From Gammaproteobacteria bacterium (GTDB lineage: Bacteria > Pseudomonadota > Gammaproteobacteria > Natronospirales > JAJUFS01): a stretch of DNA of 42,729 nt. A model generated the notes under the pieces. The model worked only from the letters and a program-made list of their open reading frames with translations. It was not told the origin of the DNA and ran no database searches. Below are positions 40,464 through 42,542 of this stretch, piece after piece (position 1 is the first letter of the stretch; the number at the start of each line of letters is the position of its first letter). The DNA is taken from assembly GCA_033720815.1 (NCBI GenBank), contig JAWWBT010000003.1:1-42729 (forward strand), given 5' to 3'. A program made the position numbers and the translations under genes.

Positions 40464-42542
40464 ATGCGCAATTCAAAGATATTAAGGCGCGCCGCGAGCA
40501 TAGCCGGCATAGCCGTAACTGCCCTGGCAATGGCCGGGCAGGCGGTGGCCGATGACGACGGCAAGGCGGCCTATGAAACCAACTGCGGAGCCTGCCACCA
40601 GGCGAACGGCCAGGGTGTGCCCAACGCCTTCCCGCCGCTGGCCAAGTCCGATTACCTGATGGCCGATGAAGAACGCGCCATCGCGACGATCATCCGTGGC
40701 ATGACCGGTGAAATCACCGTCAACGGCAAGACCTATAACGGCATGATGCCGCCGATGGGGCACCTTGATAATGAAACCATTGCCGACATTCTTACCTATG
40801 TCCGCAACAGCTGGGGCAACTCGGGCGGTGAGACGACCGAAGACGAAGTAAAGGTCGTGCGTGCCGAGCTGGAAGGCAAGCCAATGGGCGAAGAGGAACA
40901 GCGCCATCCCGGCGTGAATGAGTCCGCCATGGCTTATGAAGGCGCACCGTCGAGCATGAAGGATGGTGTGAAGATGCACATCACGCCGGGCGCGCCGCCG
41001 GTCACCGAAGCGGAATTCGCAAAGGCGACTGAAATCTTTTTCGAACGTTGTGCCGGCTGTCACGGCGTGTTGCGCAAGGGCGCAACAGGCAAGCCGCTGA
41101 CTCCGGATATCACCCAGGAAAAGGGTACGGATTACCTGAAGGCATTCATCAATTATGGTTCGCCGGCAGGCATGCCGAACTGGGGCACCTCGGGCGAGTT
41201 GTCCAATGAGGAAATCGAGCTGATGGCACGCTTCCTCCAGCACGAGCCGCCAGAGCCGCCGGAATTCGGCATGGCAAAGATGAAGGAGACCTGGAAGGTA
41301 ATCGTGCCGCCGGAGGACCGTCCGACGCGCAAGATGAACTCGTACAACATCGAGAACATTTTCGGTGTGACCTTGCGAGACGCCGGTGAGGTGGCGCTGA
41401 TTGATGGCGATACCAAGAAGATCATCAATATCATCAAGACCGGCTACGCCGTGCACATTTCGCGTCCGTCGCATTCGGGACGGTATCTCTACACCATCGG
41501 TCGTGACGCCAAGGTCGACCTGATCGACATGTACATGGATCCGCCGCAGAAGGTCGCGGAGATCAAGATCGGCCTGGAAGCACGCTCGGTGGAAACCTCG
41601 AAATACAAGGGATACGAGGACAAGTATGCAATCGCGGGCGCCTACTGGCCGCCACAGTACGTGCTCATGGATGGCGACACGCTGGAACCGAAGAAGATCG
41701 TTTCCACGCGGGGCATGACGGTTGATACCCAGGAATACCATCCGGAGCCGCGCGTTGCCGCAATCGTGGCCTCGCATGAACACCCCGAGTTCATCGTCAA
41801 CGTGAAGGAAACCGGCAAGATCCTGCTGGTCAACTACGAGGATATCGATAACCTCAAGGTAACGACCATCGGTGCTGCGCCGTTCCTGCACGATGGCGGC
41901 TGGGATCGGACGCACCGTTATTTCCTGACTGCAGCCAACAAGTCGAACAGGATCGCGGTGGTTGATTCGCGCGACCAGGAACTGGAGGCCTTGGTCGAGG
42001 CACACGAGATTCCGCACCCGGGTCGCGGTGCCAACCTCATCGATCCGGAATACGGCCCGGTGTGGGTGACCAGTGCCCTGGGCAATGCCGACATCACTTT
42101 CATCGGTACGGATCCGGAAGGACATCCCGAGAATGCGTGGAAGGTAGTCCGTACGCTGGAAGGACAGGGTGGTGGCTCGCTATTCGTGAAGTCACATCCG
42201 ACATCACATCACCTGTACGTCGATACGCCGTTGAATCCTTCCGAGGCAATCAGCCAGTCGGTGGCGGTGTATGACGTCAATGACCTGGATGCCGGCTACA
42301 AGGTGCTGCCGATTGCCGAATGGGCGGACGTTGGCGAAGGACCGAAGCGCGTCGTGCAACCCGAGTTCAACAAGGCGGGTGACGAAGTATGGTTCTCGGT
42401 CTGGAACGGCAAGGAGCAACGCTCTGCCATTGTCATTGTCGATGACAGGACGTTGACGCTGAAGAAGGTGATCAAGGACAAGAGCATCATTACACCGACC
42501 GGCAAGTTCAACATCCATAACACGGTGAATGACATCTACTGA
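40464..42542 (+). CDS. nirS: cytochrome cd1 nitrite reductase with an additional N-terminal cytochrome c domain
   Basis: GGAGG RBS, signal peptide, extra CGACH domain, canonical [58 protein letters not shown]-terminal TPTGKFN..NT..DIY. Confidence 0.97.

Follow-up and report, generated by a model that had tools for sequence, protein, structure and literature searches.

Architecture of the nirS locus and its product

The window analysed here, 42,729 nucleotides (nt) long, covers positions 1 to 42,729 (forward strand) of contig JAWWBT010000003.1 in the gammaproteobacterial assembly GCA_033720815.1 (Natronospirales). Our subject is the nirS gene near its 3′ end, which encodes a cytochrome cd1 nitrite reductase (NirS) carrying an additional cytochrome c domain in front of the usual c and d1 domains. 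The nirS module runs in the order barrel, nirS and PhuR-like TonB-dependent receptor (Table 1). Translation of nirS gives 692 residues and a single stop, with zero internal stops, and Pfam places three domains on the product, namely, Cytochrom_C (residues 32-117), Cytochrome_CBB3 (184-258) and Cytochrom_D1 (295-687), the last with 481 bits against a cut-off of 25.5. The first-pass annotation of this DNA, made from its letters and open reading frames (ORFs), had described one continuous three-domain frame, and the translation and the domain assignments bear this out. The Pfam scan found no Cu-oxidase domain in the product, which has the cytochrome domain alone in common with the copper-type reductase NirK. 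An alternative GTG start lies 45 nt upstream of the ATG and would add 15 residues; the ATG at 40464 was kept as the start because a typical signal peptide comes directly after it.

The earlier motif coordinates (CGACH, CAGCH, AYEGAPS and others) all proved exact on re-translation. In the extra domain, CGACH lies at 40584-40598 (C41-H45), a further ten-residue motif occupies residues 56-65, and YNGMMP spans residues 91-96, with Met95 (40746-40748) as the probable axial ligand. AYEGAPS contains Y158 (codon 40935-40937), and CAGCH of the domain that NirS normally carries corresponds to C196-H200. Residues 154-692 match the mature NirS of Pseudomonas aeruginosa (1nir/1bl9) end to end, with an E value of 3e-270, and the Paracoccus enzyme (1qks) with an E value of about 1e-236. 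With the residue roles of the P. aeruginosa enzyme taken from the available excerpts of Schwartz et al. 2022 (PMC8756737), H200 and M237 take the places of the haem c ligands His51 and Met88, H331 that of the proximal d1 ligand His182, and the distal H476 and H518 those of His327 and His369; Y158 of the N-terminal arm lines up with Tyr10. Thus, the whole mature enzyme of P. aeruginosa and Paracoccus can be aligned, with haem ligands and arm Tyr kept, and what sets the present protein apart is a stretch of about 125 extra residues between signal peptide and arm. When 38 three-domain homologues are aligned, Y158 and every ligand of haem c and haem d1 are invariant, with C41, C44, H45, M95 and P96 of the extra domain and C196, C199, H200 and M237 of the second each retained in 38/38 sequences.

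The AlphaFold2 monomer has a mean predicted local distance difference test score (pLDDT) of 74.1 and is confident for residues 30-138 and from about residue 170 onward; the score falls below 50 for residues 1-29 (the signal peptide) and 139-168 (the tether and arm). The poorly structured part of the tether is therefore about 30 residues long, and about 43 residues separate the end of the extra domain from the first helix of the c domain. The first-pass annotation was right that the linker retains the arm Tyr, but its length of about 50 residues was an overestimate. A His-Pro pair at residues 148-149 (40905-40910), 10 residues ahead of the arm Tyr, is invariant; many two-domain NirS of the clade also have it where their mature protein begins, before the arm Tyr, and it is missing from the aligned P. 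aeruginosa sequence. We take the invariant H148 to be reminiscent of the Paracoccus arm His that ligates haem c. Judged by its residues, the ORF probably encodes an intact, secreted cytochrome cd1 nitrite reductase of the Pseudomonas type, and its architecture predicts two haem c per subunit. To our knowledge, every cd1 nitrite reductase characterised so far has a single haem c per subunit and relies on separate donors.

Table 1. Features of the nirS module and their positions in the window.
Feature	Position	Strand	Remark
Predicted outer-membrane beta-barrel, 391 amino acids (aa)	38851..40026	+	weak Pfam Alginate_exp, 44 bits
Perfect FNR/ANR/DNR-type box TTGAT-N4-ATCAA	38776..38789	.	62 nt ahead of barrel gene start
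Perfect FNR/DNR-type box TTGAT-N4-ATCAA	40384..40397	.	67 nt ahead of nirS ATG
nirS, three-domain cytochrome c - cd1 nitrite reductase	40464..42542	+	692 codons plus stop
Sec-type signal peptide ending ...AVA	residues 1-29, 40464..40550	+	by-eye reading; pLDDT <50
Extra class I monohaem cytochrome c	residues 30-138, 40551..40877	+	Pfam PF00034
Flexible tether and N-terminal arm of NirS	residues 139-180, 40878..41003	+	pLDDT, 1nir alignment
Canonical NirS haem c domain	residues 181-270, 41004..41273	+	CxxCH 41049-41063; Met237
Haem d1 eight-bladed propeller	residues 295-687, 41346..42524	+	Pfam PF02239, 481 bits
Terminator-like GC-rich hairpin then T run	42584..42605	+	42 nt past nirS stop
Palindrome ATGAT-N4-ATCAT, two mismatches from FNR consensus	42628..42641	.	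C122 allele: TTGAT-N4-ATCAT
PhuR-like TonB-dependent receptor, first 8 codons	42706..42729	+	contig end cuts gene

The source genome is a metagenome-assembled genome (MAG) of 229 contigs, 97.8% complete and with 3.4% estimated contamination, and strain heterogeneity is present at the contig end; both could be held to favor an artefact of assembly or gene calling in which a small cytochrome c gene and a normal nirS are read as one. We give this reading next to no chance. Apart from the 692 codons free of stops, public contigs from two independent studies span 40405-41198 without gaps: an 8409-bp Logan contig of run X1, the probable source run, covers 40300-41834 with 2 differences, and a 794-bp contig of run X2, from a different study, covers 40405-41198 with 6. 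Both run from the extra domain through the tether to the second CxxCH with the frame unbroken, so that the stop or frameshift between the domains for which a read check had been proposed is found in neither. Further, the same architecture occurs in the isolates Marinicella pacifica, M. litoralis and Wenzhouxiangella sp. XN79A and in a complete Woeseiaceae chromosome, and 38/38 aligned database homologues have the two CxxCH motifs in one frame.

Origin of the extra cytochrome domain

The resemblance of the extra domain to NirK-fused cytochromes, earlier noted by eye, holds up in structure-linked searches. Among solved structures, residues 21-135 are nearest to the cytochrome at the C-terminus of Ralstonia pickettii NirK (3ziy, E 1.9e-31) and to that of Pseudoalteromonas (2zoo, E 8e-28), Thermus c552 ranking next, and over 103 aa the domain shares 51% identity with the cytochrome part of the NirK encoded in the source genome itself. 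That NirK (378 bits) is a protein of 511 aa with a lipoprotein-like N-terminus and a C-terminal cytochrome c, and its gene lies on contig C119 (4477-5841; locus L002 1501-3036, minus strand). Given the 51% domain identity, NirS and NirK of this organism both carry a tethered cytochrome of one and the same family. The c domain of NirS was considered as another source of the extra domain, by internal duplication, and was ruled out (BLASTP E 1.1).

The family to which the domain belongs is very large, with 8224 matches at E <=0.001 when it was searched against 1.84 billion cluster representatives. Its nearest single-domain relatives are free monohaem cytochromes of 130-220 aa (54-62% identity), and in the same search a three-domain NirS representative reached 52% and a NirK-fused representative 50%. 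Such free monohaem cytochromes are of the donor class, which we count as support for a donor role of the domain. Across the 38 homologues the extra domain has changed fastest, its identity to the window's own protein being 0.53, compared with 0.79 (c domain) and 0.81 (propeller). That CxxCH and Met-Pro are nevertheless kept in 38/38 points to selective retention of haem binding. The span from W117 to Y158 is likewise constrained, at 40-42 residues in 38/38 homologues, with an identity of the tether of just 0.40.

Distribution and relation to known fusions

A scan with one genome per species returned 598 relatives, and our locus counts come from the best 80 of these, a selection biased towards the query. 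The loci divide into 44 with three domains and 34 with two, the remaining 2 being too truncated for assignment. The three-domain loci include the Marinicella and Wenzhouxiangella isolates named above, Woeseiaceae (one a complete chromosome) and Steroidobacteraceae MAGs. Among 8000 scored protein clusters, the best 120 all have three-domain length (669-873 aa) and at least 93% query coverage, their sources including Steroidobacteraceae, Wenzhouxiangellaceae and Sulfidibacter corallicola. The class was also sampled evenly with 400 genomes of at least 90% completeness, one of which went unscored; a D1-domain protein is present in 68, and about 5 of the 68 look three-domain by open-frame length (G000, G285, G418, G466 and G262). 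A maximum-likelihood tree of the c-d1 core, with 76 rows after 5 truncated or frameshifted rows had been dropped, places 43/43 three-domain rows together with 9 two-domain rows in a clade of 52 (96 in the Shimodaira-Hasegawa-like approximate likelihood ratio test), and the three-domain label needs 3 changes on this tree. The NirS described here belongs to this clade, which is widespread and mostly gammaproteobacterial.

A fusion of the same general kind has been described before. According to the accessible parts of Schwartz et al. 2022 (PMC8756737), Chloroflexi carry a C1-C2-NirS, of which C1 was proposed to be NirM-like, no other denitrification genes lie within 20 kb of it, and the architecture was called unique to Chloroflexi and absent from env_nr; in the corresponding parts of Pold et al. 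2024 (PMC10999283), the Chloroflexi fusion is the only one mentioned and is placed in clade 1g. In both forms the c-d1 unit is preceded, in the same frame, by a further cytochrome c at the N-terminus, but the NirS described herein belongs to a proteobacterial clade and is 73% identical to P. aeruginosa-type cores, and the two fusions are likely independent. In the full-text literature we found no report of a proteobacterial three-domain NirS family or of haem d1 uptake, with the proviso that Table S3 of Pold et al. 2024, on nir accessory genes per clade, may already show a clade without d1 genes. Hence, the first-pass suggestion that the architecture had already been noted in surveys is correct in kind: a built-in donor in NirS is already known as a genomic inference from the Chloroflexi, as far as those parts of PMC8756737 go, while the proteobacterial family and its spread seem unreported.

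The logic of a fused redox partner is also shared with three-domain NirK (RpNiR 3ziy; Pseudoalteromonas haloplanktis 2zoo), in which the cytochrome is of the same family. There it is C-terminal and attached to a copper cupredoxin trimer core; in three-domain NirS it is N-terminal and attached to a haem d1 propeller dimer.

A PhuR-like receptor downstream of nirS

The receptor gene begun at the end of the window is found in full on contig C122 (4536-6716, minus strand) and encodes 727 aa. The last 155 nt of the window (42575-42729), which cover the hairpin, the near-FNR palindrome and the 8 receptor codons, align with the reverse complement of C122 6694-6848 at about 12% divergence, and the ORF starts match. 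This diverged overlap at a contig end indicates that strain heterogeneity broke the assembly there and that C122 carries the continuation in the form of another allele or strain. In addition, public X1 and X2 contigs carry C122-type letters directly after nirS, and an X2 contig of 2841 bp covers 42386-42729 with C122-type letters and continues about 2.5 kb past the window end; it joins the 3′ end of nirS to C122-type DNA, so the receptor gene begins 163 nt after nirS.

The C122 receptor has the Pfam domains Plug and TonB_dep_Rec_b-barrel, and its best PDB match, nearly end to end, is the P. aeruginosa receptor PhuR (8the, E 1.2e-78). With PhuR it shares the plug and barrel domains and the FRAP and NPDL boxes (residues 488-491 and 512-515), which are at least 95% conserved in 32 orthologues and which we take, as NPNL-type boxes, to be marks of haem receptors; it differs in lying beside nirS, with no genes for a haem ABC transporter or oxygenase. 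A representative orthologue (L079) scored 264.6 with the NCBIfam model TIGR01785 (TonB-hemin), below the cut-off of 316.85. Similarity to PqqU/YncD, another receptor subfamily, is weak (E 1e-6).

Missing haem d1 synthesis and its link to the receptor

Despite the 97.8% completeness of the source genome, our searches found in it no NirJ, no second D1-domain protein over cut-off (i.e., no NirF or NirN), no siroheme decarboxylase NirDLGH and no SUMT, and BLAST with representatives of the haem d1 synthesis proteins gave no matches. The nirMCFDLGHJEN operon is absent from the nirS locus and from the genome. A sub-cut-off D1-domain match on contig C59 (24 bits), considered as NirF, proved to be a generic secreted propeller with unrelated neighbours.

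The same deficit recurs across the family. NirJ, NirF and NirN are missing from 41/44 three-domain genomes, where NirS is the single clear D1 protein; NirJ was found over cut-off in 2 of the 44 and as a partial match in 1 more, as opposed to 27 over cut-off and 4 cut at contig ends among the 34 two-domain genomes. Genes for d1 synthesis flank most two-domain nirS and 1/44 three-domain nirS, and NirF/NirN-type genes stand beside nirS in most two-domain loci, a count that covers neighbourhoods and not whole genomes. Among high-quality three-domain genomes, NirDLGH was not found in G006 (a complete chromosome), G011, G002 or G041, and SUMT was not found in three of five genomes tested. In the class sample, 4 of the 68 genomes with a D1-domain protein have a single such protein, and all four are three-domain and without NirJ.

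The receptor follows the opposite pattern. With orthology set at E <=1e-60, an orthologue is present in 40/44 three-domain genomes and in 0/34 two-domain genomes, and in 37/44 it shares a contig with nirS at a distance of less than 5 kb. It is present in 40 of the 41 three-domain genomes without NirJ and in none of the 3 with it, the four genomes that lack it being these three and one fragmented MAG. Gene calls at the related loci reveal no ABC transporter or haem oxygenase that recurs beside the receptor. Of the three single-D1-protein genomes of the class sample other than our own, two have the receptor beside nirS and one, G418, does not. A receptor beside the two-domain nirS of Haliea (L070) was considered as an orthologue and dropped from the counts, as it reached 63 bits to the source genome's copy only.

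These patterns lead us to propose that haem d1 is imported by the PhuR-like receptor, a testable hypothesis to which, on the genomic patterns, we give slightly less than an even chance. Haem d1 released by other denitrifiers would cross the outer membrane through the receptor and would then bind apo-NirS in the periplasm. Insertion of d1 is periplasmic in producers too. Loading in the periplasm would require no inner-membrane transporter, and as the source genome has no haem d1 synthesis, its NirS would most probably depend on d1 taken up from outside. An analogy exists in PqqU, which in the available excerpts of PMC12124388 is a TonB-dependent importer of pyrroloquinoline quinone (PQQ) that serves periplasmic PQQ dehydrogenases in non-producers. 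In both cases a periplasmic apo-enzyme without a cofactor pathway is paired with a TonB-dependent outer-membrane importer, although receptor subfamily and cargo are different.

Several observations qualify the case for d1 import. The substrate specificity of the receptor is unreadable from sequence. G418 (100% complete; contig C14, locus L093 5044-8422), which has a three-domain NirS and a barrel, no NirJ and no receptor orthologue, is an exception to a pattern of either making or importing the cofactor. Two-domain relatives without NirJ also exist (L070 and L076; L069 is probably cut at a contig end), and L070 and L076 have no orthologous receptor, none being found among the 83 candidates scored in the L070 genome. 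Moreover, the NirS tree offers about 3 usable NirJ contrasts, the receptor changing in the opposite sense in about 2 and in the same sense in none (sign test, p >=0.5); the association of NirJ and receptor rests on few independent events, and no test of it is significant. Finally, three-domain NirS with a full d1 operon exists (L026, L058 and G262), which means that the fusion and the loss of the pathway are separable events.

Some of the same observations are what one would expect if the receptor imported ordinary haem or iron for a haem-rich anaerobic chain and d1 came from an unrecognised pathway or from unassembled genes. The best solved relative is, after all, a haem/haemoglobin receptor, FRAP and NPDL boxes included, its specificity is equally open to this use, the complete G418 lacks both the d1 genes and the receptor, and independent evolutionary contrasts number only about 3. 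Yet two-domain genomes need iron and haem too, and the orthologue is absent from 34/34 of them; its near-perfect complementarity with NirJ among three-domain genomes and its position within 5 kb of nirS in most of them likewise speak against a general haem supply. The lack of a recurring ABC-transporter or haem-oxygenase cluster is as expected for a cargo retained in the periplasm, and the d1 genes are missing from isolate and complete genomes as well as from MAGs. On balance, ordinary haem or iron import seems to us possible, if on the unlikely side.

Without imported d1, the NirS of the source genome would be inactive, and the protein could be imagined as a cofactor-less relic, or as having some other role, with nitrite reduction left to the tethered NirK on C119. 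The missing d1 genes and the presence of that NirK are compatible with this, as is a pure culture of Wenzhouxiangella AB-CW3 that, in the parts of PMC7691419 available, expressed a NirS, of this or another type, and reduced nitrite only slowly without growing on it. We nevertheless regard a relic as highly improbable. Catalytic and ligand residues are invariant and propeller identity is 0.81 across 38 homologues from several families, which indicates strong purifying selection, and a perfect FNR box and a terminator flank nirS. In addition, NirK is encoded in just 4/44 other three-domain NirS genomes; in the 40/44 without it, NirS is the only nitrite reductase that forms nitric oxide (NO).

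Proposed electron entry through the extra haem

For the extra domain itself, the most economical role is that of an electron donor. Its haem c would be reduced by the respiratory chain, through the bc1 complex or a soluble carrier (for instance, the azurin of this genome), and would pass the electrons to the haem c of NirS and from there to haem d1. By analogy with tethered NirK, we consider it probable that the extra haem is the electron entry point that relays to the NirS haem c. With such a built-in relay, NirS would, we propose, do without a NirM-type partner, as in tethered NirK and as suggested for the Chloroflexi fusion. In P. aeruginosa NirS, the N-terminal arm extends into the neighbouring subunit, and since the tether joins this arm, the extra domain may act in trans, on the second subunit of the dimer. 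Tethered NirK enzymes, for comparison, are described in PMC13324648 and PMC6278305, as far as the excerpts of these go.

Other considerations count against this role, which we infer from the architecture. As the first-pass annotation had proposed, the genome was searched for separate donors; pseudoazurin was not found in it, but an azurin over cut-off (185 bits) is encoded on contig C14 of the source genome (14307-14678), so NirS could draw on a separate donor, and the need for the extra domain is not obvious. A small nirM/nirC-like cytochrome gene stands beside nirS in 1/44 three-domain loci compared with 10/34 two-domain loci, a scarcity that may reflect loss of the whole d1 operon. In this connection, NirC is now assigned to d1 synthesis in the accessible part of PMC13168839. 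Three three-domain genomes keep a full d1 operon together with the small cytochrome gene (L026), from which it follows that the fusion is not tied to donor loss. The predicted complex of the extra domain (27-140) with the NirS core (154-692) and three haems gave an interaction score (ipSAE) of 0.01, in a run without controls, and tells neither for nor against this role. NCBIfam NF045774, labelled 'cytochrome c551', was tried as a probe for NirM and rejected: of 14 control genomes, Bacillus subtilis alone gave a score over cut-off, and no such score was obtained in the source genome or in any of the 44 three-domain and 34 two-domain genomes, despite nirM/nirC-like genes beside some nirS. The control pattern marks it as not a Pseudomonas NirM model, and its zero counts therefore say nothing on NirM.

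The extra cytochrome could, alternatively, serve mainly to dock a membrane partner (bc1, cbb3 oxidase or qNor), to gate the Tyr arm or d1 pocket, or to load or redox-condition an imported cofactor. It is attached directly to the arm with Y158 and the invariant H148, the tether length is tightly conserved, and the architecture is strongly enriched in genomes without d1 synthesis, all of which would suit such functions. The His-Pro motif, however, also occurs in many two-domain NirS of the clade and so is not specific to the fusion, the three-domain NirS with a full d1 operon show that the architecture is not confined to importers, and for a class I cytochrome c joined to a reductase that depends on cytochromes, electron delivery is the simplest job; we hold a non-donor role to be improbable. 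A gene for qNor (NorB with a cytochrome-c-like domain, 768 aa) is present in the source genome on contig C23 (17168-19474).

Combining a donor role with d1 import, we propose that three-domain NirS stands at the heart of a portable module able to work without accessory genes, bringing its own electron-entry cytochrome and pirating its d1 through the PhuR-like receptor. We put the probability of this combined reading at roughly 0.4.

Regulation and surroundings

The two perfect FNR-type boxes of Table 1 and one more with a single mismatch compare with 0.8 expected in the window, and 1/100 shuffles reached 3. A box with at most one mismatch lies within 250 nt upstream of nirS in 16/43 three-domain and 18/34 two-domain loci, against 2.1% of background windows, and nirS is probably under low-oxygen or NO control by an FNR/DNR-type regulator. 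Boxes precede the receptor gene in 4/30 loci and the barrel gene in 2/21, against the same background of 2.1%, which gives weak backing to co-regulation beyond the window.

The 391-aa barrel upstream of nirS is 37% identical to a 413-aa neighbour cluster (c4) that occurs in 19/44 three-domain loci and in 1/34 two-domain loci; no relative was found among PDB sequences. Alginate_exp-like barrels of about 390-415 aa stand beside nirS at further loci, e.g., L018, L095 and L093, the last from G418, which lacks the receptor. Nitrite, NO or the cofactor are possibilities for the cargo. Between barrel gene and nirS lies an ORF of 137 aa (39999-40412, plus strand), the 3′ end of which overlaps the FNR box at 40384-40397; it has no Pfam match and no counterpart cluster in 78 related loci, and is perhaps no genuine gene. 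A low-oxygen respiration block (25664-36072) precedes the nirS module and contains ccoNOP for a cbb3 oxidase, ccoGHIS-like genes (FixG, FixH, a P-type ATPase and a DsbD_2-like protein), hemN and a Crp/Fnr regulator.

Implications

The strongest new lead to emerge from this locus is the combination of a three-domain NirS with a dedicated haem-type outer-membrane receptor and no haem d1 synthesis. As a natural fusion, the enzyme also lends itself, as a self-contained system, to studying how electrons pass between the haems of NirS, a counterpart to what has been done with tethered NirK. Further, a family that is common in abundant benthic and soil Gammaproteobacteria contradicts the published view of such fusions as restricted to Chloroflexi, and Woeseiales nirS is transcribed in sediments, according to the parts of PMC7451513 available. 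The hypothesis of d1 import is directly testable in the cultured carriers Marinicella litoralis, M. pacifica and Wenzhouxiangella sp. XN79A. If it holds, counts of nirS would give too high a figure for the potential to denitrify autonomously, haem d1 would join cobalamin and PQQ as a public good that is traded, and the role of TonB-dependent receptors would extend to a new tetrapyrrole. Woeseiaceae, Steroidobacteraceae, Marinicellaceae, Wenzhouxiangellaceae and Lysobacterales of sediment, soil and wastewater, together a large and abundant group, would then be haem d1 auxotrophs, and nitrite reduction in these groups would hinge on a cofactor supplied by the community.

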